NCBI GenBank assembly: GCA_032250835.1
Contig: JAVVEA010000007.1
Coordinates: 80,487 to 144,486, forward strand
Length of the DNA stretch: 64,000 bases
Origin: a bacterium
GTDB taxonomy: Bacteria > SAR324 > XYD2-FULL-50-16
Direction of reading: 5' to 3'
Each line of letters starts with the position of its first letter. Position 1 is the first letter of the stretch. Positions 1,332-38,118 of the stretch are shown here, piece by piece. The position numbers were made by a program, and so were the translations under genes. The notes under the pieces were generated by a model. That model ran no database searches. It was not told the DNA's origin and saw nothing but the letters and a program-made list of their open reading frames with translations.

Positions 1332-2780
1332 ATGAATATCCGCTTTAAGCCCCTCAAACCCACCAAGAATCTGGTCGTTTTTTTTGACGCGAAAAAACAC
1401 CTCTTGCTGCCCGAGGACTGGCCCAAAGAATGGACCCAGGCTTGGAAAAACTACCTCAAGCTGCCGGAGATCAAAGGAGAATCATCGGGGGTACACCGGC
1501 TTTTTGGGGAATTGTCCGAACGGGTCTATTTAGTGGGTCTGGGCAAAGCTCCGGTGATGCGCGAGCTAGGTGCCCAACTAGGCAAGCAACTGCAACAAAC
1601 CGAATTTTCAGACCTCGCCTTAGCCCTGCCAAGTGACCGGAAACACCCTATTTCTAACGGCTTTGAGGCGTTTCTGGAAGGCTTTTTCTTAGCCCGCTAC
1701 CGCTACCAGGAATACAAAACCAAAGACCAGCCGAAAGACCAACTCAAAACCTTGACCCTCTTAGCGCCTAAGTCCAAAGAGCTGGAATCAGCAGGCCAAA
1801 AGGCTTGGATCTTGGCCGAAGCAACCAACGAGGCTCGGGACCTTTGCAACCGGCCGGGTAATTTAATGACCCCAACGCACCTCAAAGCTGCCTGCCAAGC
1901 GATGGCCAAGTCGGTCGGGCTCAGCTTCAGCGCCTTAACCGAAACCCAAATGGCCAAAGAAGGGATGGGGTGTCTCTTAGGGGTCTCCAAGGGATCCGAG
2001 GAGCCTGCCTTCCTCAACATCCTGCAATACAAAGGCGGCGGGGCCAAAGCGCCGACCTTGATGTTAGTCGGCAAGGGCCTGACCTTTGATGCGGGCGGCA
2101 TCTCGCTGAAGCCCGCCGCCAACATGCACGAGATGAAATTTGACATGTGCGGCGGCGCGGCGGTTTATGGGGCCATGAAGATCATCGCCCAATTGGGGCC
2201 TAAGGTGAACGTAGTGGCCTTAATCCCTTCGAGCGAAAACCTACCTAGTGGGAGCGCCACCAAGCCCGGCGACATCTTGACTGCTTGCAACGGGACTACC
2301 GTAGAGGTGCAAAACACCGATGCCGAAGGCCGTCTAATCTTGGCCGATGCCTTGGCTTATGGCCTCAAGCGGTTTAAGCCCGACGCGGTGGTGGACATTG
2401 CCACCCTGACCGGGGCCTGCGTGGTGGCTTTGGGGCATTACCACAGCGGCTTACAATCAAGCAGCGAATCGCTGGCCAAACAGATCGAAAAAGCCAGCCA
2501 GCAAACCGGTGACCCCGTCTGGCGCATGCCCCATGCCGATATTTATGACAAAGACTTGGACGGTACGGTCAGTGATCTGAAGAATATTGGCAGCAAAGGG
2601 GCGGGGATGATCACCGCCGGGCTTTTTCTCAAGCGCTTTGTGGGCAAAACGCCCTGGGCCCATATCGATATCGCCGGGACCGCCTGGGGCGGCGACCGCA
2701 TCCCCTTTTATCCCGCCCAAGGAGCCAGCGGCACCGCCGTGCGCCTCTTGGCCGAATTGGCGGTCCATTTTAAGCGGTAA
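1332..2780 (+). CDS. pepA: Leucyl aminopeptidase (M17)
   Basis: VGKGLTFDAGG, MKFDMCG, NTDAEGRL, DIATLTGA and WAHIDIAG motifs. Confidence 0.95.
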   Translation: MNIRFKPLKPTKNLVVFFDAKKHLLLPEDWPKEWTQAWKNYLKLPEIKGESSGVHRLFGELSERVYLVGLGKAPVMRELGAQLGKQLQQTEFSDLALALPSDRKHPISNGFEAFLEGFFLARYRYQEYKTKDQPKDQLKTLTLLAPKSKELESAGQKAWILAEATNEARDLCNRPGNLMTPTHLKAACQAMAKSVGLSFSALTETQMAKEGMGCLLGVSKGSEEPAFLNILQYKGGGAKAPTLMLVGKGLTFDAGGISLKPAANMHEMKFDMCGGAAVYGAMKIIAQLGPKVNVVALIPSSENLPSGSATKPGDILTACNGTTVEVQNTDAEGRLILADALAYGLKRFKPDAVVDIATLTGACVVALGHYHSGLQSSSESLAKQIEKASQQTGDPVWRMPHADIYDKDLDGTVSDLKNIGSKGAGMITAGLFLKRFVGKTPWAHIDIAGTAWGGDRIPFYPAQGASGTAVRLLAELAVHFKR

Positions 2781-2782
2781 CG

Positions 2783-3076
2783 ATGCCTCAAATCACCACG
2801 CCCGCAGCGCAGGGCGGCGATAAATGTTATCTCTGTGGGCGCGAATTTTCCTCCGAAGAGCCGGGTGTTTTGCGCCCGGTCTTGATCGCCCAAGGCGATG
2901 CCCAGGGTATCCGAGAAAGTGGGCACCAACAAACCACTATCATCACCCTGCGCTCCGAGCGCCGCATTTGCAAAGACTGCGACCGCCCTCGCCAAGGCCC
3001 CCGTTGGTGGGCTTTGGCGGGGTTGCTGTTGGGGTTATCCCTGGCACTGGGCCTATTTTTGTATTGGCGTCAGTAG
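2783..3076 (+). CDS. Small hypothetical protein with two CxxC pairs and a C-terminal TM helix
   Basis: CYLC...CKDC, hydrophobic C-terminus; starts 2 bp after the pepA stop. Confidence 0.6.
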   Translation: MPQITTPAAQGGDKCYLCGREFSSEEPGVLRPVLIAQGDAQGIRESGHQQTTIITLRSERRICKDCDRPRQGPRWWALAGLLLGLSLALGLFLYWRQ

Positions 3077-3696
3077 GTCCGAAACACCGCCTTGACGATG
3101 CCTTGGATGCTCACTTCGTTAGCGTCTACATAGATGGGCTTCATATTTTGGTTGGCCGGTTGCAGGCGGATTTGGCGGCCTTCGCGGTAGAAACGTTTGA
3201 CTGTGGCTTCCTTAAAATGCAGCATGGCGATCACCAGATCCCCGTTGTCCGCCACTTCGCGCTTTTCGACGACCACATAATCACCGTCCAAAATTGCTTC
3301 GTCGATCATCGAATCTCCCCGCACCCGCAGCAAATAACTACGGTCTGGCCGCTGCACCATCGATTCAGGCAGGGTCATGAACTCGTTTTCCGTAAAGTGC
3401 TCAATCGGCAGGCCCGCCGCCACACTACCCAAGAGCGGCAATTCCACCACCGCAGGTTGCGTCAGCGGAGCCACCGGGGTTGGTTCGCCCTTAAGTACGC
3501 GGATCGAGCGGGAGACATTGGGGTCTAAAGAGATGTACTCTTTCTCGACCAAGTTCTTCAGGTGTTTGTGCACCCCGCCAGCGCTGGCCAGATCAAAATG
3601 GGCGGCAATATCGCGCACCGAAGGGGGGTAGTGGTGGTCTTCGATATATTCACGGATATAATCGAAGATGGCCTCTTGTTTACGGGTCAACGACAT
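3070..3696 (-). CDS. lexA: SOS repressor LexA
   Basis: N-terminal wHTH (PPSVRDIA), VAAG cleavage site, GDSM catalytic Ser, TVKR catalytic Lys. Confidence 0.95.
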   Translation of the reverse strand: MSLTRKQEAIFDYIREYIEDHHYPPSVRDIAAHFDLASAGGVHKHLKNLVEKEYISLDPNVSRSIRVLKGEPTPVAPLTQPAVVELPLLGSVAAGLPIEHFTENEFMTLPESMVQRPDRSYLLRVRGDSMIDEAILDGDYVVVEKREVADNGDLVIAMLHFKEATVKRFYREGRQIRLQPANQNMKPIYVDANEVSIQGIVKAVFRTY

Positions 3697-3708
3697 AGGG
3701 GCTCCTAG

Positions 3709-3753
3709 GGTGATGTTTTGTTCACCTTAGAACATATGTCCACCTAGCGTCAA
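3709..3753 (-). promoter_or_regulatory. lexA promoter (-35 TTGACG, candidate -10 TAAGGT) overlapped by two tandem imperfect palindromes (putative SOS boxes)
   Basis: Minus strand reads TTGACG CTA GGTGGACATATGTTCTAA GGTGAACAAAACATCACC CTAGGAG...ATG. Confidence 0.65.
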
Positions 3754-3758
3754 GTACC

Positions 3759-4121
3759 TCACTTTTTTATCGGCTCCATCATCCCGAAGATCAAGCCATC
3801 GGGCCCGGCAGCATAACAATGCCGCCCTACACCGGGGATTTCCAACGGGTCGGTAACCAACTGCCCCCCAAGGGACAGAACCCGGTCGCGCTTAAAGTCC
3901 AAGTCCTCGACTTCGATGGTGTTGATCACCCCTTGTCGGCCCCAGGCACGACCAATGGCCCCGTTGATGCCCGGTTGGTCCTCTTCTTTGGTTTGGGTCA
4001 GATAATAGGGACGCGGAGCCCCTTCAAAGGCCTGGGGTTGCCAATCAAAGAGCCGTTGAAAAAACTGGGCCCCTGCTTGGGGGTCTTCGAGCCAAAACTC
4101 AAAATATACTAATGGGTCCAT
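3759..4121 (-). CDS. VOC/glyoxalase family protein
   Basis: VYFEF...FFQRLFDW, GINGAI, GGQLV...IPGVG...PDGLIFGMME pattern. Confidence 0.85.
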   Translation of the reverse strand: MDPLVYFEFWLEDPQAGAQFFQRLFDWQPQAFEGAPRPYYLTQTKEEDQPGINGAIGRAWGRQGVINTIEVEDLDFKRDRVLSLGGQLVTDPLEIPGVGRHCYAAGPDGLIFGMMEPIKK

Positions 4122-4175
4122 TTCACCTCCTGATCGATTCCTACTCCCCCTTTGGATTATACCAAGCCAAAGGCC

Positions 4176-4219
4176 AAAAAAAAAGGGCTCCTGCCTTGGC
4201 GGCAGGAGCCCTCAGTTTT
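4176..4219 (-). terminator. Rho-independent terminator (possibly bidirectional)
   Basis: A-run, then GGGCTCCTGCC-ttggc-GGCAGGAGCCC stem, just downstream of the 4248 stop. Confidence 0.8.
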
Positions 4220-4247
4220 CAGACCGAAACTTACCGTAAATTCAGGA

Positions 4248-5045
4248 CTAAGGTCCGTAGAACTCGAAGATATGGTCGCGTAGCTTTTTCCAAATTTCGT
4301 AAATCGGCTCGCGCGGCATTTCTTCCCATTCCATCAACTGCAAGATGTAGCGCTTGATCTTGCCTCGGGTCATGGTCCGGTCTTCCCAGACCGCGTAGAT
4401 ATCTTCTTCTTCTTGGGTCAACTGCTTTCCGTCCAACTTACGGCGGTAAAGGAACTTCAAGGCCGAGTCGGGATATTTGTGGACAAAGTCGATCAGTGCC
4501 CCGGCGGTGATTTCGCCGGAACCATAGACCACATCGTCTTCGCCTTCGGTGATCTCTAGGCCCGAGTCGAAGTCCACGTCCTCTAAGTCCAGTTCGTCGA
4601 TCGCCTCGACCTGCGGCTCTTTGACCGTTCGAGGCGGTGGCGGGGAAATATGCTCTGAGCCGACCTCTTCGACGCTGGCCACGGGGCTGGAAATACTAGA
4701 CTCCGGCGGATGGGCTGCGGCATCGCGGGGCGCTTCGCGCACCGGAGCTTCTTCGCGGGGTACCGCGGCGGCGAGCCGTCTCGGAGTCCGCTCCTCATTG
4801 GGCAACAAGACCATCACCAGGAAACTGGTCGAACTGATCAAAAAGGCGACTGAAAAGATCAGCCCCTTTTTGTTGCGGTCATATTTGTAGCTGTTCAATA
4901 TCTGGGTACGCGGTTCATAGCCGTTGGCCACCAAGATATACTTGCTGTTCATCTCACTGAAAAAGTGCATCGTCGCCAATAATGCCAGCGCGATCACCCC
5001 CACCAAAGTGAGTAAAAAGATGGATGAATCTCTTGATTTTCTCAT
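4248..5045 (-). CDS. Hypothetical membrane protein (2 TM, Pro/acidic linker, soluble C-terminal domain)
   Basis: Long ORF; ATG at 5045 (MRKSRDSS) follows GAGGG; two hydrophobic segments. Confidence 0.65.
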   Translation of the reverse strand: MRKSRDSSIFLLTLVGVIALALLATMHFFSEMNSKYILVANGYEPRTQILNSYKYDRNKKGLIFSVAFLISSTSFLVMVLLPNEERTPRRLAAAVPREEAPVREAPRDAAAHPPESSISSPVASVEEVGSEHISPPPPRTVKEPQVEAIDELDLEDVDFDSGLEITEGEDDVVYGSGEITAGALIDFVHKYPDSALKFLYRRKLDGKQLTQEEEDIYAVWEDRTMTRGKIKRYILQLMEWEEMPREPIYEIWKKLRDHIFEFYGP

Positions 5046-5221
5046 GGTTAGTCCCTCATTGGGTTTCGGTTCTACCTTCTTATCGGCAGCAATGCGCAGA
5101 ACTTTAGGCCTTTGGCTGTTTAATCTGAGGCCGCTATCTTTTCCAAACTCACGGTGGCACAAGCTTGCTGTTTTAGTTGCAAAGCGGTATAGATAGCGAA
5201 AAATTTTCTGAAGTTGGCTAC

Positions 5222-6049
5222 ATGGTAGACAAAAAGTTCCCCAAAAAAAGTACCGGCGTGCTGCAAGCGCCGCCCGCGAAAAAGAGCAAGGGCAAGAAGG
5301 GCTGCCTCTTTTGGTTAGTTCTCTTGGTCTTGATCGCCGGGGGCCTGTTTGCCTTCCAAAAGGAGCGCCTTAAAACTTGGGCACCGGCTTTAGTTCCGAG
5401 CATCGAGCGCATGGACGCCCTCTTAAAAAGCTTTGATCCGACCTTTGGCCTCTTCAAATCCGAACCGCCTCCGGTGATTGAAGCCCTGCCCATGATCGAG
5501 ATTGAGTTGCCGCCAGCACCGGAGCCCAAACCGACACCCAAGCCGAAGCTTTTGCCCATAGTTGGTGAAAAACTCAACTATATCCGCGTGGGCGGGTGCA
5601 TGGATAAAGAATGTAGGGTGCAGTTGCTGCGCGAGATCGAATCGCTCAACTTACCGACTCTGGTCAAGCGCTACCGCCGCCAGACGTTATATTGGGAGTT
5701 GGTCTCTAAAACCGCCATGAACCGCTCAAATGCCGAGAACCGCTTGGTGGAAATTGAGCGCCATGCGCTGAGCGCACCGCCACCGACCTTGACCAAACAC
5801 CGTGGGGAATACCGCATCAGCCTGGGTGAATATCCCGACAAGACTTCGGCAGTCCAGATGCGGAGCTATCTGGCTCAGTTATATCCCGATGTGGATTTGC
5901 CCTTTGACTTGGTGCCGCGCCAACGGCATTTTGATATGGTCTATATCTATGCTGGACCGTTCACTTCGCGTTTTAACGCAGAGAGCGTAGCCGAGTTGAT
6001 CCGGGACAAGCGGTTTGTGCAGGAAACCTTTGTGACCGCCGATCCTTAA
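5222..6049 (+). CDS. Membrane-anchored SPOR-like domain protein
   Basis: N-terminal TM, Pro-rich linker, YRISLGEY and YIYAGPF...AESVA SPOR-like motifs. Confidence 0.6.
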   Translation: MVDKKFPKKSTGVLQAPPAKKSKGKKGCLFWLVLLVLIAGGLFAFQKERLKTWAPALVPSIERMDALLKSFDPTFGLFKSEPPPVIEALPMIEIELPPAPEPKPTPKPKLLPIVGEKLNYIRVGGCMDKECRVQLLREIESLNLPTLVKRYRRQTLYWELVSKTAMNRSNAENRLVEIERHALSAPPPTLTKHRGEYRISLGEYPDKTSAVQMRSYLAQLYPDVDLPFDLVPRQRHFDMVYIYAGPFTSRFNAESVAELIRDKRFVQETFVTADP

Positions 6050-6369
6050 CGGACCTCGATGGTCAACTGCATCTGGGGGTGGATGGCGCAGTTCACCTGA
6101 ACCTCGCCTTTGCGGTCAAAGGTGACCGACTTGCCGGGGCCCTTGCCGTAGCTGCCTAGGTCAAAGGTCTTGGCTTCGGAAAGGGAGTAGACGTTATGGT
6201 AGACGTCATCTTGGTTGGGGAATTCAACCCTATCACCTTGCTGGATCACCAAGTGTTTAACCGAGAAAGCCTTGTTCTTTTGGACTACCTTGAAAACCTC
6301 TTCGGCCTTCACCAGTCCAACAAGGCCCAAGACGCAGGCCGACAGAATTAACAGTTTCGGTGCTTTCAT
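6046..6369 (-). CDS. Secreted cupredoxin (blue-copper) domain protein
   Basis: Signal peptide; HNVYS and NCAIHPQM give His/Cys/His/Met type-1 copper ligands. Confidence 0.8.
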   Translation of the reverse strand: MKAPKLLILSACVLGLVGLVKAEEVFKVVQKNKAFSVKHLVIQQGDRVEFPNQDDVYHNVYSLSEAKTFDLGSYGKGPGKSVTFDRKGEVQVNCAIHPQMQLTIEVR

Positions 6370-6495
6370 GTTTTTTTTGGGATTGTGCGCTACTGAATAT
6401 AGCAGCCGGTCAACCACTTGTCCAACCATTTCCCGCCAGAACCGCAAGGGCCCTTTTGTGAGCCCAAACCAACAACCCCTATTTCGACGATTTTC

Positions 6496-7998
6496 ATGAG
6501 CCAAGACCAAGGGAAACCACAAGTTTGGGGCGGCCGACTGGCCGAGTCCCCCGCGCAAGCCAACGTTCGTTTTTGCGCCGGCCGCGACGTGAGCGCGTTG
6601 CCCATGGCGGACCAAGATTTGGTCTTTTGGGACATCTGGACCAACCTAGCCCATGCCAAGATGCTCAGCGAAGTCGGGGTTTTAAATAACGAAGAGTACC
6701 GCCAAATCTACAACGCCCTCAAAAGCCTAGACCCCGACCAATTTGTTTTAGACCCCGGCAAAGAAGATGTACACATCAACCTAGAGCACTACCTAACCTA
6801 CCAATGCGGGATCGAGGCAGGCAAAAAAATCCACTCCGGGCGCAGCCGCAACGACCAAGTGGCCACCGACATGCGCCTCTACCTTCGTGACCGGCTGCTG
6901 CATTTTACGGGGCACTTAAGCGAGCTGGCCCTAGCGGTAATCGAGCGCGCCGAAGGGCTCAAAGAAGCGGTCATGCCGGGCTTCACCCATTACCAACCCG
7001 GCATGCCCACCACCGCGGCCCATTGGCTGACCGCCTGGAGCCAAGCCTTGCTGCGCGATTTAAACGCGCTGATGGACAATTTTAAAGGGATGAACCGCTG
7101 CCCCTTGGGCTCTGCGGCGAGCTTCGGGACCAGTTGGCCCATCGACCGGGAGCGGACCGCCGAATTATTGGCCTTCGACGGCGTCGAGGAAAACAGCCTA
7201 GACGCCATCAGCAGCCGTGGGGAACAAGAAGCCCGAGTGGCCGCCAGCATCGCCGTGGCCATGAACCATCTAAGCCAAATCAGCCAAGACCTGATCCTCT
7301 GGTCTACGCCTTTTTACGGGTTCGCTAAGGTCGCCGACCGGTTCGTTACCGGCAGCAGCATCATGCCCCAAAAGCGCAACCCCGACTTTGCCGAGATCAT
7401 CCGCGCCAAAGCGGCCCAGACTACAGGCAGTCTGACCTCGTTGCTGGGCATCGCCAAGGGGGCCATGTCGGGCTACAACCGCGACAGCCAACAGACCAAA
7501 TACTTGATCATGGACCTCTTCCGCGAAGTAATGGACGCACCGTTGATCTTAGCGGGGGTGGTCGAAAGCTTGACCTTTGACGAAGCAGCCATGCGCGCCG
7601 CCTGCAATAAAGACTTCCTCAACGCCGCAGACGTCGCCGACTTCTTGGCCCAGCGTTTTTCCTTAAGCTTCCGCGACTGTTACGAGGTGTTGTCCCTGGC
7701 GGTGAAGTATTCTTCTGAAGAATCGGGCCAACTGACGCTGGGCGGCTTGCAGCGAGCGGTAACCGAGCGAGGCTTGGCGGACCAAGTGGTCCTCGACGCG
7801 AGCGAAGTAGCGCGGCTCAATGATGCGGTCCAGCTGCTCAAGGAAAAAACCCACACCGGGGCCCCTTCGCCCGAAGCGGTCGCCCAGCTGATCCAGCGCC
7901 AGCGCGAACAATTGGGCCAACTGCAAGAGCAACTGGGCCAATTAAAGATGAAGTTGGCGGTGCGCGAGGTAGAAGCGCTGGTGGCGCTGAGGCCTTAA
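6496..7998 (+). CDS. argH: Argininosuccinate lyase
   Basis: WGGR, HSGRSRNDQVATD, MPGFTH and TGSSIMPQKRNPD signature. Confidence 0.95.
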   Translation: MSQDQGKPQVWGGRLAESPAQANVRFCAGRDVSALPMADQDLVFWDIWTNLAHAKMLSEVGVLNNEEYRQIYNALKSLDPDQFVLDPGKEDVHINLEHYLTYQCGIEAGKKIHSGRSRNDQVATDMRLYLRDRLLHFTGHLSELALAVIERAEGLKEAVMPGFTHYQPGMPTTAAHWLTAWSQALLRDLNALMDNFKGMNRCPLGSAASFGTSWPIDRERTAELLAFDGVEENSLDAISSRGEQEARVAASIAVAMNHLSQISQDLILWSTPFYGFAKVADRFVTGSSIMPQKRNPDFAEIIRAKAAQTTGSLTSLLGIAKGAMSGYNRDSQQTKYLIMDLFREVMDAPLILAGVVESLTFDEAAMRAACNKDFLNAADVADFLAQRFSLSFRDCYEVLSLAVKYSSEESGQLTLGGLQRAVTERGLADQVVLDASEVARLNDAVQLLKEKTHTGAPSPEAVAQLIQRQREQLGQLQEQLGQLKMKLAVREVEALVALRP

Positions 7999-31116: not shown

Positions 31117-32205
31117 ATGTCTAAAGTCGCGCTGATCACCGGGGTCACCGGTCAGGACGGGGCCTATTTGGCCGAATTGTTGCTAGAAAAGGGCTATGAG
31201 GTCCACGGCCTCAAGCGCCGCGCCTCCTCCTTCAACACCGACCGGATCGACCATCTCTACCAGGACCCCCACGCCAACCAGCGCAAGTTCATCTTACATT
31301 ACGGCGACCTAACCGACTCGACCAACCTGATCCGCTTGGTCCAAGAAATCCAGCCGGACGAGATTTACAACTTAGCCGCCCAGAGCCACGTGGCGGTCTC
31401 CTTTGAGACGCCCGAATACACCGCCAACGCCGATGCCATCGGCACCTTGCGCTTGTTAGAGGCGATCCGGGTTTTAGGCTTAGAGAAAAAGACCCGCTTT
31501 TATCAGGCCAGCACCTCGGAGCTTTACGGCGAAGTGGCCGAAACGCCGCAGCGCGAAACCACGCCCTTCCACCCCCGTTCTCCTTATGGCGTAGCCAAGC
31601 TCTATGGTTACTGGATCACCGTCAACTACCGCGAAGCCTACGGCCTGTTCGCCTGCAACGGGATTTTGTTTAACCATGAATCCCCCCGGCGCGGTGAAAC
31701 CTTTGTGACCCGCAAGATCACCCGCGCTTTGGCGCGCATCCACTTAGGGCTAGAAGACTGCCTCTATCTGGGCAACATGGACGCCAAGCGCGACTGGGGC
31801 CATGCTAAGGACTACGTAGAGGCCATGTGGCGGATGTTGCAACAAGACCAACCCGACGACTTTGTGGTCGCCACGGGGGTGCAGTATTCGGTGCGGCAGT
31901 TTGTTGAAGCCGCCGCCAAGAAGTTGGGTTGGGTGATCCGCTGGGAAGGGAGCGGTGAACAGGAACGGGCGATCCGCCAAGAAAATGACCAAGTGGTGGT
32001 CCAAGTAGACCCCCGCTATTACCGCCCCGCCGAGGTGGAAACCCTTTTGGGCGATCCGGCCAAAGCCAAGGCCATATTGGGCTGGGAGCCGAAGATCGGC
32101 TTTGACCAATTGGTCACCGAGATGGTGACCGAGGATTTGAGGATTGCCCAAAAAGAGCAGCACATCACCCAAGGCGGCTTCGACGCTTACAGCCCGCACG
32201 AATAG
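31117..32205 (+). CDS. gmd: GDP-mannose 4,6-dehydratase
   Basis: [56 protein letters not shown]. Confidence 0.97.
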
Positions 32206-32410
32206 GGGCGGGTTCGCCTTCGCGGAGACAACAGCCCCTCTTTCCAGGCTCAATGGAAGCCCAGAGTTATTGGAAGAATTGAAAAGAAGGGACTTCTTTC
32301 TTTGGCTCGCAAAGAAACGAGCCCTCGCCTTCGCGCCTAAGACCGCCAACGCCTCACTCGCAAGAGTGAACCCAAAAGCCCTACACCGCAAGCGTCGGGT
32401 TTCCGCTGCA
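32206..32410. repeat. Multi-hairpin REP/MITE-like non-coding element
   Basis: Direct repeat TCGCCTTCGCG (32214, 32325); hairpins TTTCTTTG-GCTCG-CAAAGAAA (32297-32317) and TCACTC-GCAA-GAGTGA (32354-32369). Confidence 0.45.
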
Positions 32411-32411
32411 C

Positions 32412-32498
32412 AATAGGTATACTGTCCCCTGATTCCATAAAAATAGGTATACTGTCCCCTGATCCCCCGATTCTGATTCTTCTGATTTTGTCCTCTGA
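32412..32498. repeat. Left cassette-end motifs: two exact 22-bp copies of AATAGGTATACTGTCCCCTGAT plus CTGATTTTGTCCTCTGA
   Basis: Copies at 32412-32433 and 32442-32463 (30-bp period); 17-mer at 32482-32498. Confidence 0.85.
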
Positions 32499-32501
32499 AT
32501 T

Positions 32502-32624
32502 TTTAATCGCCTCCAAGGCCACTTTGGCCTTGAATTCTTTGCTGAAATTCTGCCGTTTCATGACACTCCGTTTTTTGGTTCGGCTCTATCTTAACAAGTT
32601 GTCCAGTTTCTGGGGTCCACTATA
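32502..32624 (-). mobile_element. IS3-family remnant: left end plus first ~20 codons of OrfA
   Basis: End TATAGTGGACCCCAGAAACTGGACA, GGAG RBS, MKRQNFSKEFKAKVALEAIK; then truncated. Confidence 0.75.
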
Positions 32625-32634
32625 GTCCACTATA

Positions 32635-35178
32635 TTATTTCTTGCGTAAATTACTAAGTTCATAGTTGTGTGACCAAATTCTCCAGCCAGAAATTCCTAC
32701 AACCTTCAAAAAGGCGAGTTCAACCTTAATTGGCTTACCTTTCGTTGATTCGTCTATTTCCTTGTCATCAAATTGAAAAAGGTGGGCACTTGTCTCCGAG
32801 TTTATCCGATACACGACAAATATTTCTTCATTCCTATTTTTTACTATGCTTCCTATCTGGATGTTTTGCTTTTTAGATATTTTTTCAAAAGGCAGCAGAG
32901 TGCAAAATTCAATACTCCACTGCTTGATTTTTTCTAACCAAGGACCAAATTCTTCAGATTCATAGTTTCCTTTCACTGAATCCAGGTATTCTTCAATTCG
33001 TGGGTGACAATTCAACCATGGAACAAGCGATAGCAGAACAGCGTGATCAAACAACTCTGCTTCTTCAATTTCCTCCGTGTCCCACCCAGAGTACTCCCGA
33101 TTTTTGACATCGACTTCCCAAGCTAAACAGAGCAATGCTGGGACTAGAAAATACAATTCATCTGGCAAACTATCGTTACCGTCCACGATTTTTTTGAAAC
33201 GCCAGTTACCTGACCTCGAGAACAAGTATTGTATGGCTACACTCAGCAACTCCTTCTGCTGCTCAAAAATATCAAGTTTTGGGTCATCTATAAAGCTTCG
33301 TTGCAGCGTAGCGCGTGAAAGCAGGTGAGCTGCACAGGCCAATATTCCTGCATACCTCTCAACAGTAACGATGTCTTGGTCAGGGTTTTTAAATAAGTTA
33401 GTTTTCAAGCTCCGTACGATATAAGTCGCTTTGTTTGATAGTTGCTCCCGTAGTTGCGTATCGACGGGCTCTAAATCGATTTCATCTGAATCCTCATGTT
33501 TCGTTAAAGCGAGTAATTCCTCCTCATCTACCTCTTGGATTTTAGGTTCAATCTTTCGGTCAGTTAAAAACAGACGAGGTAACATTTCCAAGAGACTTCC
33601 TAAATCACCATGACGAAGATGATTGATGTGGTTGTGACTATCTGGACTTATCTCGTCTTGATAGAAAATTTCCATCGAAGCGGTTTGAACGGGATTTTGC
33701 TTCGGACTTTGACTTGAGGCAGAGTTAGCTTGAGGGCCGCTTTTTATTAGTTTTTGAAACAGATCAAACAAAGGTTGGGGGCTATCTTCACCTAGAAAAA
33801 TTCCTTTGAGTAAACTTTGAATTTTTTTCTCTTGATCTGACATACTTAGGTTTTGTATGTGCCTTACCTCGATCAAAAGCAGTTGCAGGCTTTCTGACTC
33901 AGCGTTGCTGAGTCTAGCGCGTTTCCAGGAAGAGTACGGGATGCCTTCCACACGAAAATGTAGCCTGTCATCCACCAACTCAGATTCAGAAATGAGGAAA
34001 AGTTGATTATCCCATTCGTCCAGCAACTCCAACTTAGAGCCATTTTGCCAAGACTTAGGCACGTTCAGCACACGCAGTTCACCGCCCTCCCTTTGCGCCC
34101 ATAAAAGGCCTCCTGTTGAGCCACTGTCGGCTGTGGGGTTATTCTTCCTCACTTGCGCTCTTTGTGTCGCTGAAAGCTCTGGGCAATCAAATAAATCGTT
34201 TAGCTTCAATTTGTCAGCGAGTTGCTTAGCTAATTCACCCTCATGGACAACGACCGCTTCAGCGTTTCTACCGCCCGTATTAGCTAGCCACGCTGCCGCG
34301 CTTGCATTTGCACTACCGCTAATCAGGAGGTCTTCGTCGTGAGTTGATTGAAAATAAAAAAACTTTGCGTGTTTGAAACAGTTTATTGCCGTATCCCGTA
34401 AATCCACATTATTGGCATCGACAAACATCACCCCATCAGCATCGATTTCATCTACGTCCACTTCACAGACCTCTGGGTCAATCGCCACCGTAAGAGGGCA
34501 TTTGAATTTTTCTCGCAATTGTTTGAGGAATTCTAGATTGCGGTCAAAATATGGGCTAAACACCAAAATCCGGCTGCATTGGAGATTTCTATCCGCCAAA
34601 ACCTGATTCCAAAGGCTAGGGCCATCTGGAGTCGAGTAATAAAAAGGGGGAGATTGATCGGAAAGCAAGTTGGACGCTTGCGGCATTTGCCCCCAAAACT
34701 CGGTCAAAGCGTTTTGTATTGGCAGGGGAATATCGGATTGTAACATCCAAGATTCAGCTAGATTTTGAACATGACCAATGAGTTGTTGGGCAATCGGTTG
34801 ATCGGAAAGTTCAGTGAAAGAGCTTGAAACTTCCAAGTTATGCCCGTATCCCGAAAAGGTTAGGTTATGGCTACCCACATGCAATCGAGTTTGTTTTTTC
34901 CCAAAAAGAAATAGGAGCTTTGGGTGGAAGCTTTGAGCGCAATCGACCGGAATCAATAAATACTCTTTTCCTGCAAGGGTAGGTGCCTGATCTGGATCGG
35001 CTAAAGCCTTAACCAGCTGCCGCCGGTCCATCAGCAATACATTAAACAAGCACCCGCGTCGCTGCAAGCGCTTCAAAATAAAGCGTTCGTAAAAAGGGAA
35101 ATATACGTTGAAGCTAGTTATTAAAGACGATTGGAACGCATGTTCTTCTAGTGATTTAATCAAGGATAGTTCATTCAT
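32635..35178 (-). CDS. Phospholipase D-superfamily (nuclease-like) protein, 847 aa; putative defence effector
   Basis: Two motifs FHPKLL...VGSHNLT and KHAKFF...SGSANAS in the N-terminal ~330 aa; unrecognised C-terminal half; AT-rich. Confidence 0.8.
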   Translation of the reverse strand: MNELSLIKSLEEHAFQSSLITSFNVYFPFYERFILKRLQRRGCLFNVLLMDRRQLVKALADPDQAPTLAGKEYLLIPVDCAQSFHPKLLFLFGKKQTRLHVGSHNLTFSGYGHNLEVSSSFTELSDQPIAQQLIGHVQNLAESWMLQSDIPLPIQNALTEFWGQMPQASNLLSDQSPPFYYSTPDGPSLWNQVLADRNLQCSRILVFSPYFDRNLEFLKQLREKFKCPLTVAIDPEVCEVDVDEIDADGVMFVDANNVDLRDTAINCFKHAKFFYFQSTHDEDLLISGSANASAAAWLANTGGRNAEAVVVHEGELAKQLADKLKLNDLFDCPELSATQRAQVRKNNPTADSGSTGGLLWAQREGGELRVLNVPKSWQNGSKLELLDEWDNQLFLISESELVDDRLHFRVEGIPYSSWKRARLSNAESESLQLLLIEVRHIQNLSMSDQEKKIQSLLKGIFLGEDSPQPLFDLFQKLIKSGPQANSASSQSPKQNPVQTASMEIFYQDEISPDSHNHINHLRHGDLGSLLEMLPRLFLTDRKIEPKIQEVDEEELLALTKHEDSDEIDLEPVDTQLREQLSNKATYIVRSLKTNLFKNPDQDIVTVERYAGILACAAHLLSRATLQRSFIDDPKLDIFEQQKELLSVAIQYLFSRSGNWRFKKIVDGNDSLPDELYFLVPALLCLAWEVDVKNREYSGWDTEEIEEAELFDHAVLLSLVPWLNCHPRIEEYLDSVKGNYESEEFGPWLEKIKQWSIEFCTLLPFEKISKKQNIQIGSIVKNRNEEIFVVYRINSETSAHLFQFDDKEIDESTKGKPIKVELAFLKVVGISGWRIWSHNYELSNLRKK

Positions 35179-36826
35179 TTCGCCATTTTGATAGAATTTG
35201 CTCCGCAGCTAGGGAGATACCAATCATTTGATCACTATTCGTCTCAATCAAACCTAAATCCACTAAAAATTGGCGGGATGGCTCAAAGCGAGGATTGGTA
35301 AAGACCGGGGTAGGTATGCGATCAACGTCAACCAGCAGCCCGAATTCCGTAGGCTTTAAACGGAAGGTATCTTGTCCGTATTGGGCCATTTTGATTAAAG
35401 CTACTTGAAGATGGCAATCTAAGGTCCACCTCGTCAGCAATTCTTTTACCACTTGTTGAAATGTCATTGCAGCCCAATCAACAAATACCAATTTAAGAAA
35501 ATTTCCTAAACTTAAGCTGTATGACCTCCGGTCTTCTAAGCTAAATTGGCTGTCTGCAGGAAGGTTTGTGCTGTTATTCTGCTTTGCCCTGATAGCAATA
35601 GCTAACAACAAATCCAAAGCGGTCTCTAATAGTTGTTCTAACTCCAGATTGCTAGTTAACTCTATCGCCAATTGACACTCATGATTTTTAGCTTGCCATT
35701 CCAGAAGGCCTGGAAGGGTCGGTTCCTCTTCCTCCAAGATCAATGAGAAGGATTTCTGGTCAATATCCTCATACAGTTCTTGCCAGATTTCCTGAGTAAA
35801 CAGCCACTCTGCAAACTGACCGCTATTGCTAAATCGAACGCCTTCGCTTGAGACTGAATCTATGGCGCTTAAAGCAAACTGAAATAGCCCCTGCATTGCC
35901 ATTGCCAGAAGCTCTGACTGCTCGTATAGCGCCCAACCTTCTCGAATTCGTTCCAACGACGATGGAAGATTCCAAGGCTGTTGATCCTGTGTCGCATTGG
36001 CATAACATTGAGCACGAAATGCAAGGGAGGCTAAATTTGGATTTTCGACTTTCGTAGCGCCATCGATCCAGTGGAGGATCAAGCTGAGAGAGGCAGGTCG
36101 GTAGCCCGCGAATGACTTCGCTGAGCTGGCAGTGGTAGCAAAGAGAAGATTAGTTAGCTGCTTTTGCTCAGATGCGCTTTGACGCAGTTGGCAGAAACAG
36201 AAGCTAGCAAGCTGATCTAACCGGTTCAGGTCAAATTCGTCTTTATTAAGTGTCTGGAAAAATAATTCCGAACTTTCATCCGAAGCAAAGCTTTTTGCTA
36301 ACGGGGAAATATTGGAAACAACGCACTTTAGCTTTTTCAGGTCCCCTTCAAAAAAGCCATAGGAAGCAAGTGTAGAAAAGTAATACTGCCCCAACCCGCC
36401 TTTGAGATTCTGAAAATAAGACTTTTCTGCTTTCGGGTCAGCAAAGTGACTCAAGCGCAATGTGTGGTCGCTATCTAACGCATTCAGAGCTGGCCCTAAG
36501 GTATTACTCCCAACCATCGCTTTGATATGCTGCGAAGGAGCAGGTCCGTTACCTGTATGATTATGCCTGTGCGCGATCAGTGTTAAAAGGCATTCAGCAC
36601 GCCGGAGGAAGGTGATCACCTGCGTGTCATCAAGTGCAAACCTTTCGCATGTATGAAATGTATGAAAAAACCAGGGATAAAAAGAGTAATAGCGTAACCG
36701 TTCAGTTACGTTTGTTATGCCAGGGAGGAGTTCGGCATACAAAGCTTTATTGGGAGCTTGCACGCCCAAGTGGTCCAGCCCACCCTTTTCGTACATTGGT
36801 TTTGTCCAGAAAGTATCTTGGTTCAT
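35171..36826 (-). CDS. Hypothetical 551-aa partner of the PLD protein (N-terminus reminiscent of DUF6361-like proteins)
   Basis: GLDHLG...LLPGITNVTERLRYYSFYPW, GGLGQYY, C-terminal FTNPR...FLVDLGLI; 8-bp overlap with the PLD gene. Confidence 0.75.
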   Translation of the reverse strand: MNQDTFWTKPMYEKGGLDHLGVQAPNKALYAELLPGITNVTERLRYYSFYPWFFHTFHTCERFALDDTQVITFLRRAECLLTLIAHRHNHTGNGPAPSQHIKAMVGSNTLGPALNALDSDHTLRLSHFADPKAEKSYFQNLKGGLGQYYFSTLASYGFFEGDLKKLKCVVSNISPLAKSFASDESSELFFQTLNKDEFDLNRLDQLASFCFCQLRQSASEQKQLTNLLFATTASSAKSFAGYRPASLSLILHWIDGATKVENPNLASLAFRAQCYANATQDQQPWNLPSSLERIREGWALYEQSELLAMAMQGLFQFALSAIDSVSSEGVRFSNSGQFAEWLFTQEIWQELYEDIDQKSFSLILEEEEPTLPGLLEWQAKNHECQLAIELTSNLELEQLLETALDLLLAIAIRAKQNNSTNLPADSQFSLEDRRSYSLSLGNFLKLVFVDWAAMTFQQVVKELLTRWTLDCHLQVALIKMAQYGQDTFRLKPTEFGLLVDVDRIPTPVFTNPRFEPSRQFLVDLGLIETNSDQMIGISLAAEQILSKWRNE

Positions 36827-36918
36827 TTTTTCAGACCATATTAATTATTCAATGTTCCACCACGTACTTAGCAGTTTACCTGGAAATTTTCAATTTTAAC
36901 CGCAAATATACGATATAT

Positions 36919-37053
36919 TATAGTGGACCAACCTTTTAAGAACGTTCCCTAGGCGCTCCCTTGTCTGAAGGCAAACACCCATCTCACTCTGCGGCCCAAT
37001 GCCCCTCGTTCGAAAATCAGGGGACAAAATCAGGTGGCAGTATACCGATTTTT
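36919..37053. repeat. Right cassette-end motifs, inverted relative to the left end
   Basis: TATAGTGGACC (36919-36929); TCAGGGGACAAAATCAG (37017-37033, 16/17 to left 17-mer); ATCAGGTGGCAGTATACCGATT (37029-37050, 19/22 to left 22-mer). Confidence 0.8.
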
Positions 37054-37197
37054 GCTCAAATCCAGCGAATTGCGCTGTCATTGAAATCAGGGATTCTGTC
37101 ATCTGATTTATTTAATCTTTATCGACCTAATTAGGTTCGCCCCAACAAGCGGATGCAGCAGTGCTTGGGGGTGTAAAAAAGACAACCTAAGAACCCC

Positions 37198-38118
37198 CTA
37201 CCGCTCCGTCAGCTTCAGCGGCAAGTCTTCGTGCACGCCGCGGTTGGCGTAGCCTTTCCAGGCGGCGACGTCCAGCTTCTGGCCTTGATTCCAGTAGGCT
37301 AGCATCTTCTCGGGGTCTAAGGCTCCGGCCTTATTGGCGAACTCCTGCTGCACCTTGTTGTAAGGCACGTTGACCTGTCGGGAGGTGGCGTAGGCGACGC
37401 CCGCGCGGTCGGCGAAGAGGGGCCAGAAGATTTGTAGGCCGTGTTCTAGGCTGTTGGGGGCCTTGAAGGGGATCATCCGGCATTGGGCCAAAAACTCACG
37501 GGTATCAAAAATATGGCCGTCTACCGAAAGGGGGTAACCCCAGTCATATTCCCCTTGCCGCCAACGCCAGCGGATAAAGCCACCCTCTTCTTGCAAGGGG
37601 GGCCGCTGCATGGGCAAACCCAACATATAATGGAAGTCCAACTGGGCCCCATGGCGCAGGCTGAAGACGGCCTCCTTGGGGTCCTGCTTCAGGGCCTCGG
37701 TGAAGTCGAATTCTTGGGTGAAGAGGATGTCATCGACCAAAAAGAAGACCCGCGTTGCCTCAAGGGCCGCCAAGAGGTCCAAAAGATCGCTACGGAAGGC
37801 GTATTCCTCCACAAAGGTCACCGGCCAATCCTTACAAAGCCGCCTAACCTCGGCGTAGGCTCCTTGGTGGGCTTTGCTAGAGGCGCGGAAAAGGACGCTC
37901 AAGGGGGCGGGGTCTTGGGCCTGCAAAAAATAAGACTCTAAAAGCGCGAAGAGCTGCAAGGCGCGGTCAAAACTAAAAACCACCCCGGCCAGCGCGTTGG
38001 GGCGCGGGGCCGAGTCGCGCGCCAATTGGACCTGGACCATCTGTTTCAGCTGGGAAGTCCGCCAAGGCAGGTTCAACTGCCCGGCCAAGCGCAGGTGACG
38101 CAACCAACGCCGGATCAT
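37198..38118 (-). CDS. Putative GT-A fold glycosyltransferase-like protein
   Basis: VFSFDRALQL, FFLVDDILF, WGYPLSVDGHIF, PNSLE; glycan-locus context. Confidence 0.6.
   Translation of the reverse strand: MIRRWLRHLRLAGQLNLPWRTSQLKQMVQVQLARDSAPRPNALAGVVFSFDRALQLFALLESYFLQAQDPAPLSVLFRASSKAHQGAYAEVRRLCKDWPVTFVEEYAFRSDLLDLLAALEATRVFFLVDDILFTQEFDFTEALKQDPKEAVFSLRHGAQLDFHYMLGLPMQRPPLQEEGGFIRWRWRQGEYDWGYPLSVDGHIFDTREFLAQCRMIPFKAPNSLEHGLQIFWPLFADRAGVAYATSRQVNVPYNKVQQEFANKAGALDPEKMLAYWNQGQKLDVAAWKGYANRGVHEDLPLKLTER

Follow-up and report, generated by a model that had tools for sequence, protein, structure and literature searches.

Inverted sites at the ends of a cassette

The stretch of DNA analysed here, called the window, is the 64-kb segment G000:C41:80487-144486 of a SAR324 genome (G000, a 3.66-Mb assembly that is 97% complete). 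Between gmd and a host gene for a protein of 306 amino acids (aa) it carries a cassette whose interior consists of two open reading frames (ORFs) of 847 and 551 aa and a 133-bp remnant of an insertion sequence (IS) of the IS3 type. Short sites in inverted orientation stand at both ends. These 22-bp sites likely represent a host family of repeats, of the repetitive extragenic palindromic (REP) or REPIN type, whose units border a foreign cassette, and the family is probably kept up by a single Y1 transposase. The cargo is foreign in composition because of its low GC content: values are 0.38-0.49 from about position 32400 to about 37100, against 0.55-0.60 on either side. Repeat clusters coincide with both GC borders and no unit lies inside the cassette.

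The 22-mer AATAGGTATACTGTCCCCTGAT occurs exactly at 32412-32433 and 32442-32463, both on the plus strand, and with 19/22 identities on the minus strand at 37029-37050. With up to three mismatches (≤3), these are the only three matches in the whole window, and none of 100 shuffled sequences contained any. The 17-mer CTGATTTTGTCCTCTGA lies at 32482-32498 (+) and, with 16/17 identities, on the minus strand at 37017-37033; at least two matches were reached in none of 100 shuffles. A repeat search lengthened the inverted arms to 25 nt with 88% identity (32439-32463 / 37029-37053) and returned a second arm pair of 21 nt with 90% identity (32482-32502 / 37013-37033). The first-pass annotation of this DNA had described inverted 22-bp and 17-bp sites at both cassette ends, and its coordinates and counts hold in the mismatch search against shuffles. 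A scan of ORFs and Pfam domains bears out its further observation that neither a recombinase nor an intact transposase lies inside.

Read from its sequence, the 17-mer corresponds to the 3' half of the repeat unit that contains the 22-mer. The units and half-units at the two borders are:

32411-32435, plus strand: repeat unit A1, with the first exact 22-mer at 32412-32433; found by nhmmer as C41:112897-112921, E=1.1e-5
32439-32463, plus strand: repeat unit A2, with the second exact 22-mer; nhmmer E=1e-5; a direct copy 30 bp downstream of A1
32482-32498, plus strand: half-unit b, the 17-mer; a unit end CTGATTT followed by the 3' half of another unit (TGTCCTCTGA)
37013-37033, minus strand: half-unit b', the reverse complement of the 17-mer; repeat and mismatch searches
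37026-37053, minus strand: repeat unit A', the reverse complement of the 22-mer (19/22); nhmmer C41:117512-117539, E=1.2e-5
37083-37109, plus strand: degenerate unit, nhmmer E=0.059; together with A' a (-)(+) doublet with a REPIN-like hairpin at 37027-37109

The mirror-image look of the cassette arises because both clusters contain the same full-plus-half composite and, by chance, stand face to face. The composite is also found beside the Y1 gene (C43:888-928), where 41 nt are 90% identical to the cassette's right end. Relatives, too, have tandem pairs spaced by about 30 bp like A1-A2, with 81-88% identity. The right unit has its real partner not at the left end but in the degenerate unit at 37083-37109; together the two make up a hairpin doublet. 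This doublet sits downstream of the 306-aa host gene, and its spacer is similar to those of two other doublets, at C5:45918-46000 and C4:83710. On the left, the units are set among other host repeats ('X' and 'Y', listed below).

A dispersed repeat family and its Y1 transposase

The sites belong to a genome-wide family that is linked to a Y1 transposase gene. At up to three mismatches (≤3), the 18-base core of the window has 33 copies in the genome and the core of the majority variant (the consensus) has 38, whereas the reversed controls have 0 in both cases. Aligned copies give the unit consensus gAAAATAGGTATACTGTCACCTGATTTy of about 27 nt, in which the conserved part extends past the core by about 8 nt on the upstream and 3-4 nt on the downstream side. 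Searched as a profile, the 33 copies gave 74 genome matches at E<10 and 37 at E<0.01. The latter are extragenic in 33 of 37 cases, in a genome of which the crude ORF set covers 89.6% (binomial p ~1e-28); the remaining four are within ORFs that are themselves doubtful, being short or spanning repeats. When 596 Gb of species genomes were scanned for exact matches, 33 stretches were returned, 24 of them in records of 'SAR324 cluster bacterium'. The other nine are singletons in unrelated taxa, within the approximately 17 expected by chance. Rfam had no match at E<=1 in the region 31500-38000.

The units stand alone or in pairs. Among 11 tight pairs (E<1), five are (-+), four (--), two (++) and none (+-). 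An initial impression that all tight pairs are (-)(+) was therefore wrong, and, since tight (+)(-) pairs are missing from the genome, a split of an ancestral (+)(-) palindrome by the cassette was no longer considered. Neighbouring units that span genes (151-8000 bp apart, E<0.01, n=14) are (+,-) in five cases, (-,+) in three and direct in six. Folding as single-stranded DNA gave -4.5 kcal/mol (z -2.3) for the right unit A' alone. The doublet 37027-37109 reached -19.1 kcal/mol (z -4.45), a value matched by none of 200 shuffles. A doublet on C5 folds at -15.8 kcal/mol and a tight doublet of the relative G015 at -21.6 kcal/mol (z -10); z values of the doublets range from -3.8 to -10.

Pfam Y1_Tnp matches a single ORF of the genome, of 219 aa, at C43:2516-3175 (42.9 bits against a cut-off of 23). 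The only NCBIfam match of the protein is NF047646 REP_Tyr_transpos (E=2.6e-17, 63 bits). A (-) unit at C43:2441-2463 lies about 50 bp upstream of the gene and a (+) unit at 3167-3193 overlaps its stop codon. As an alternative, the first-pass annotation had proposed REP-type sites of a Y1 transposase of the REP-associated tyrosine transposase (RAYT) type. This proposal gains support from the inverted motif copies on either side of the sole Y1_Tnp gene and from the same (-)gene(+) layout around the Y1 orthologues of three relatives, G015, G008 and G017. The histidine motif HIH (H60, H62) and Y119, the tyrosine of RYVERNP, are invariant across five aligned proteins. The best solved-structure match of a profile of these five proteins was E. 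coli TnpArep (4er8, E=0.008), with HIH and the tyrosine aligned to HMH and YIYINP.

The transposase was followed through 19 genomes of the family, 12 of which have a Y1_Tnp match at E<=1e-10. Clear orthologues are present in G015 (63% identity), G008 (59%), G012 (54% and 53%), G017 (55%, partial) and G004 (47%, with stops). Core counts on both strands, with those of the control after the slash, were 107/2 in G015, 44/5 in G016, 35/0 in G017, 21/4 in G004 and 15/3 in G012. The seven genomes without a Y1 match at that threshold had 0-8 core copies. Copy number thus roughly tracks the Y1 orthologue among the family genomes. The Y1 gene of G004 has units on one side only. Upstream of the window genome's Y1 gene (C43:1094-4384, locus 60-300 and 660-720), a different repeat (...tcctctcaggatcatgggaac...) forms tandem copies of about 85 bp, over which a doubtful 272-aa ORF extends. 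Immediately ahead of the Y1 gene, two units enclose a gene for a cold-shock protein.

Several observations weigh against a REP/REPIN-type family maintained by this transposase. The RAYT score of 63 bits is under the curated NCBIfam cut-off of 80, and the single Y1 sequence had 0 matches among solved structures. The Y1 genes of G012 have no units beside them; G008 has a Y1 orthologue, yet only 2 core matches; G016 has 44 core matches, yet its Y1 protein is merely 35% identical. A single unit forms at best a weak hairpin, and both left units have a minimum free energy of 0. The GTAG/CGTC tag, which classical REPs carry, is missing from both strands of the 33-copy consensus. About 40-70 copies in the genome are few in comparison to the hundreds that are typical of Pseudomonas REPs in the passages of Loper et al. 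(PMC3390384). The presence of repeats at both compositional borders, together with similar brackets around toxin-antitoxin (TA) and defence genes (see below), also counts on this side and leaves room for a role of the repeats in cassette turnover.

A pdif-like module, moved or inverted in trans by a site-specific recombinase, was the explanation first put forward for the cassette. The 22-mers would then be inverted core sites of the Xer type, on which XerC/D or another recombinase acts from elsewhere. The dif layout is 11-6-11, a 28-bp XerC/XerD site. In favour of this reading, the unit bears a superficial likeness to a recombinase core site, with an asymmetric 8-nt core between two imperfect arms of 9-10 nt (AAAATAGGT / ACCTGATTTT). 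The cassette has its sites in inverted orientation, and the missing neighbouring recombinase is not decisive since Xer enzymes work in trans. However, arm and spacer lengths differ from the dif layout, and a unit that occurs 33-74 times, mostly extragenic and often in tandem or hairpin clusters, and that flanks the Y1 gene in four genomes, is a repeat family. The inverted order is no rule among the gene-spanning pairs (5/14 are (+,-)), and the right unit has its hairpin partner nearby instead of at the left end. None of the six matches to the tyrosine recombinase domain Phage_integrase is on the window's 144-kb contig, and the repeat-rich contigs G015:C84 and G017:C206 have none either. A second copy of the cassette was found neither by blastn in the genome nor by tblastn of the 847-aa protein against the genome contigs, searches with a reach of close relatives. 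A fuzzy search for the host dif site with the known dif motif gave nothing above shuffled controls. The association with Y1 accounts for the sites without further assumption. The pdif-like reading is disfavoured, though Xer action in trans keeps this short of proof, and we regard the reading as highly improbable.

Cargo genes, IS3 remnant and neighbouring repeats

The cargo, the IS traces and the repeats at the left border are:

32635-35178, minus strand: 847-aa ZacB-like protein of the PLD family; Pfam PLDc_2 2.5e-8; PADLOC ZacB 1.3e-15 and PDC-M27B 4.7e-15
35171-36826, minus strand: 551-aa protein with a weak N-terminal likeness to ZacA; PADLOC ZacA 3.8e-4 over residues 13-78 (66 residues)
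32502-32634, minus strand: IS3-family remnant with the left end, the 5' untranslated region and the first 21 codons of OrfA (MKRQNFSKEFKAKVALEAIK...)
36919-36929, plus strand: TATAGTGGACC, an inverted 11-mer of the IS3 end; repeat search 32625-32641 / 36912-36928, 17 nt, 88%
32254-32361, no strand assigned: dispersed repeat 'X' of about 110 bp, directly downstream of gmd, with the internal hairpin gggacttctttctttggctcgcaaagaaacgagccc
32357-32434, no strand assigned: dispersed repeat 'Y' of about 78 bp, whose 3' end is the first 22-mer; four copies in total

The 551-aa protein has no Pfam or NCBIfam family. ZacC is missing from the cassette and the DNA next to it; its profile has only weak matches to helicase motifs, on another contig of the genome. 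The Azaca-like pair may be truncated or may represent a two-gene variant. Overall, the cassette can be described as an Azaca-like island of foreign origin that is probably truncated and bears an IS3 scar.

The IS3 remnant shares 84-86% DNA identity over 123-124 bp with copies in the relative G007, one of which runs into a full uninterrupted OrfA. The IS3 family name comes from reading the OrfA sequence; Pfam had no match for the 74-aa ORF. In G007 (C14:8500-14500, locus 2700-3220), several copies of this element are present and two of them stand head to head. No other copy was detected by blastn in the window's genome. The outer end of the remnant follows directly on the stop codon of the ZacB-like gene, the expected place of zacC, and the remnant is cut inside OrfA exactly at the start of half-unit b. 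The terminal 10 bp of the IS, GTCCACTATA, are present in tandem at 32615-32624 and 32625-32634, at the left edge of the cargo. At the right edge, TATAGTGGACC may be the trace of a second IS end, or chance; the region has no further homology to the IS.

These traces raise the possibility that an IS3-type element delivered the cargo by composite or one-ended transposition. The repeats would then merely mark the target and the present ends would be deletion scars. IS elements are known to aim at REP clusters, REP-targeting members of the IS3 family among them. Delivery by IS3 is further suggested by the left end and 21 OrfA codons between the ZacB-like stop codon and half-unit b and by the inverted terminal 11 bp at the opposite cargo edge. 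As the genome has no other copy, the IS probably came with the foreign DNA. Against this, the repeat junction is inside OrfA and not at an IS end, hence does not represent an insertion; the 11-mer on the right could be chance; and no target-site direct repeats were found around the whole cassette. Overall, delivery by the IS appears unlikely.

In the preferred explanation, host repeats of the REP/REPIN type border a cassette that came by another route, at which the IS3 remnant hints. The 219-aa Y1 transposase, an HUH enzyme, probably makes and maintains the repeats of about 27 nt by acting on single-stranded DNA. The repeats may predate the cassette or may have settled its borders later. Foreign DNA with an IS would have landed between host repeat clusters in the gap from gmd to the 306-aa gene, and a later deletion at the left end may have taken the rest of the IS and perhaps zacC.

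To the left of the units, 32254-32434 is made up of the host repeats 'X' and 'Y'. A blastn search of 32250-32660 against the genome found about 12 partial copies of repeat 'X' with 73-87% identity, on C13, C43, C33, C38, C22, C14, C39, C4, C42, C15, C3 and C41. The other copies of repeat 'Y' have 78-84% identity and are located at C41:2952-3023, C38:81601-81677 and C22:329813-329892. The 306-aa host gene right of the cassette (37198-38118) has no Pfam, NCBIfam or PADLOC family. A search for an empty site or other cargo in 40 relatives, none of the same genus, gave DNA matches to accD, gmd and the repeats only. A metagenome scan with the 306-aa neighbour returned only relatives at 34% and 45% identity.

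Repeats beside other genes and comparison with known systems

The first-pass annotation had suggested a search for such sites beside other accessory or defence genes. They are there in a descriptive sense, and their enrichment over random controls is only borderline. Intervals between units of the window's genome hold HicB-like antitoxins at three loci and genes for ParE, PIN, HigB, CopG-antitoxin and Fic/DOC proteins. They also hold a small PLD nuclease, several ORFs without a family, the cold-shock gene and the Y1 gene itself. Units bracket a 455-aa protein with an N-terminal TIR domain (G000:C14:3300-10800, locus 3117-4484; PADLOC PDC-S66 6.7e-60, ThsB 1.1e-35). The HigB toxin and the CopG antitoxin are located in inter-unit intervals adjoining this TIR gene. 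In G017, a (+) unit at 2697-2714 precedes a Gabija pair (C206, locus 3767-7230; GajA 9e-104, GajB 2e-78), and (-) units follow it at 7298-7312 and 7505-7529.

The 182-kb contig C84 of G015 (117500-137499; 163000-182284) has runs of one to six small genes parted by unit doublets or triplets. The array genes encode GNAT, methyltransferases, PIN/MazE, glyoxalase, HEPN-NTase, GrpB, MFS with MarR and TetR with amine oxidase. An integron-like reading of these arrays was dropped: none of the 17 Phage_integrase matches of G015, and none of the five of G017, is on the repeat-rich contigs, and by eye the unit has no attC-like R box. Comparison of G015 with relatives of the same genus gave DNA-level matches to the repeats only.

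Of the 51 ORFs closest to the 37 units, 8 have TA, defence or mobile-element Pfam domains, whereas the control, 52 ORFs at 26 randomly chosen intergenic gaps, has 2 (Fisher p=0.05), with classes assigned post hoc after seeing the matches, a cut of E<=1e-7 on both sets and one gene drawn twice in the control. Leaving out the Y1 gene and the PLD protein of the window raises p to 0.15, and counting an SNase and a patatin of the control as well raises it to 0.23. ORFs adjoining units are shorter, with a median of 189 aa against 290 aa. The enrichment of TA and defence genes beside units is only suggestive.

Such brackets could mean that the repeats are functional module boundaries, at which accessory, TA and defence cassettes are gained, lost or swapped. 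The route would be a Y1 transposase acting on pairs of units, or recombination with units as portable homology, a RAYT-linked analogue of pdif and integron cassettes. Unit pairs around the TIR/ThsB-like, three HicB, ParE, PIN, HigB, CopG and Fic genes, the Gabija bracket, the gene arrays of G015 and the repeats at both GC borders are consistent with it, as is the higher share of TA, defence and mobile ORFs. However, that enrichment is weak and its classification post hoc. Orientation of the gene-spanning pairs is inconsistent, and the (+)...(-) order at the cassette is opposite to that of the units flanking the transposase gene, (-)...(+). None of the cassettes turned up in a second context, and same-genus genomes share only repeats at the DNA level. 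The repeats are perhaps simply best tolerated beside dispensable genes. A function as module boundaries is therefore quite improbable, and a recurring repeat position beside TA and defence genes is not established. The extension of this reading to the lineage as a whole, in which RAYT-type repeats would delimit exchangeable defence, TA and accessory cassettes, linked to Y1 or driven by repeat homology in an integron- or pdif-like manner without a tyrosine recombinase, is a long shot.

The analysis adds a REP- or TIR-type repeat family and its Y1 transposase to the poorly studied, uncultured SAR324 lineage. In the literature on RAYT, REP and REPIN, SAR324 is not mentioned among the matches listed; in a search for literature linking REPIN or 'REP sequences' to defence islands or hotspots, neither repeat term appears among the matches listed. 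Defence hotspots without identifiable means of mobilisation are reported for E. coli and Pseudomonas in passages of PMC10121019. Should the repeats prove to mark or create sites of gain and loss of defence and TA genes, they would offer a testable, repeat-based explanation for such hotspots. The cassette also illustrates that a tidy inverted site pair can be a by-product of host repeats.

The pdif modules of Acinetobacter plasmids carry cargo without a recombinase of its own between short inverted flanking sites. The cassette is similar in its cargo without recombinase and its short inverted sites. In contrast, its sites are distributed over the chromosome, linked to Y1 and not 28-bp XerC/XerD sites, and the module has no second context and no consistent orientation.

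Azaca (ZacABC) is an anti-phage system in which, according to a preprint, ZacA, ZacB and the NTPase ZacC are all required for DNA cleavage in one studied case (bioRxiv 10.1101/2025.07.10.664194). The cassette has a PLD-type ZacB-like protein preceded by a weakly ZacA-like one, in the order given there and on one strand. It differs in the absence of an adjacent ZacC and in a ZacA match of just E=3.8e-4 over 66 residues.

The frame for REP/REPIN-RAYT systems is given by Bertels & Rainey 2011 (PMC3116915), Ton-Hoang et al. 2012 (PMC3333891) and passages of Loper et al. 2012 (PMC3390384). The SAR324 genome differs from it in single units that fold weakly or not at all and have no GTAG tag, in about 40-70 copies instead of hundreds, and in tight pairs of which five of 11 are (-)(+) doublets and the rest direct. 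The protein has 219 aa, in comparison to the 165 aa of the solved E. coli TnpArep chain. The similarities concern a single-copy HUH/Y1 transposase with flanking copies of the repeat that it presumably mobilises and extragenic repeats that in part form inverted doublets folding into long hairpins. Repeat and gene are common to related genera, as vertical inheritance predicts. The foreign cassette is free of the repeat, like the 'REP desert' in passages of Loper et al. (2012).

By sequence, the units most closely resemble the terminal inverted repeats ('TIR') that flank RAYT-like Y1 transposases in TIRtrons. The passages of Di Nocera et al. (2013, PMC3733652) describe TIRtrons, or TIRYT, as RAYT-like genes flanked by non-palindromic TIRs that share GGGGWSAS; some TIR families are moderately abundant, with single, dimeric and grouped copies, and the GTAG/CGTC tag is part of the REP definition there. 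The majority form in the SAR324 genome, GGTGACAG (18 of 33 seed copies), is one base off GGGGWSAS, and SAR324 is not among the lineages named in those passages, the likeness being at the level of the repeat. GGGGACAG, present in the two left copies of the window and in 12 of 33 seed copies, fits GGGGWSAS. As in TIRtrons, the Y1 gene stands between inverted repeats that are poor palindromes themselves, one of which extends over the gene's 3' end, and the family comprises single, dimeric and grouped copies at moderate abundance.

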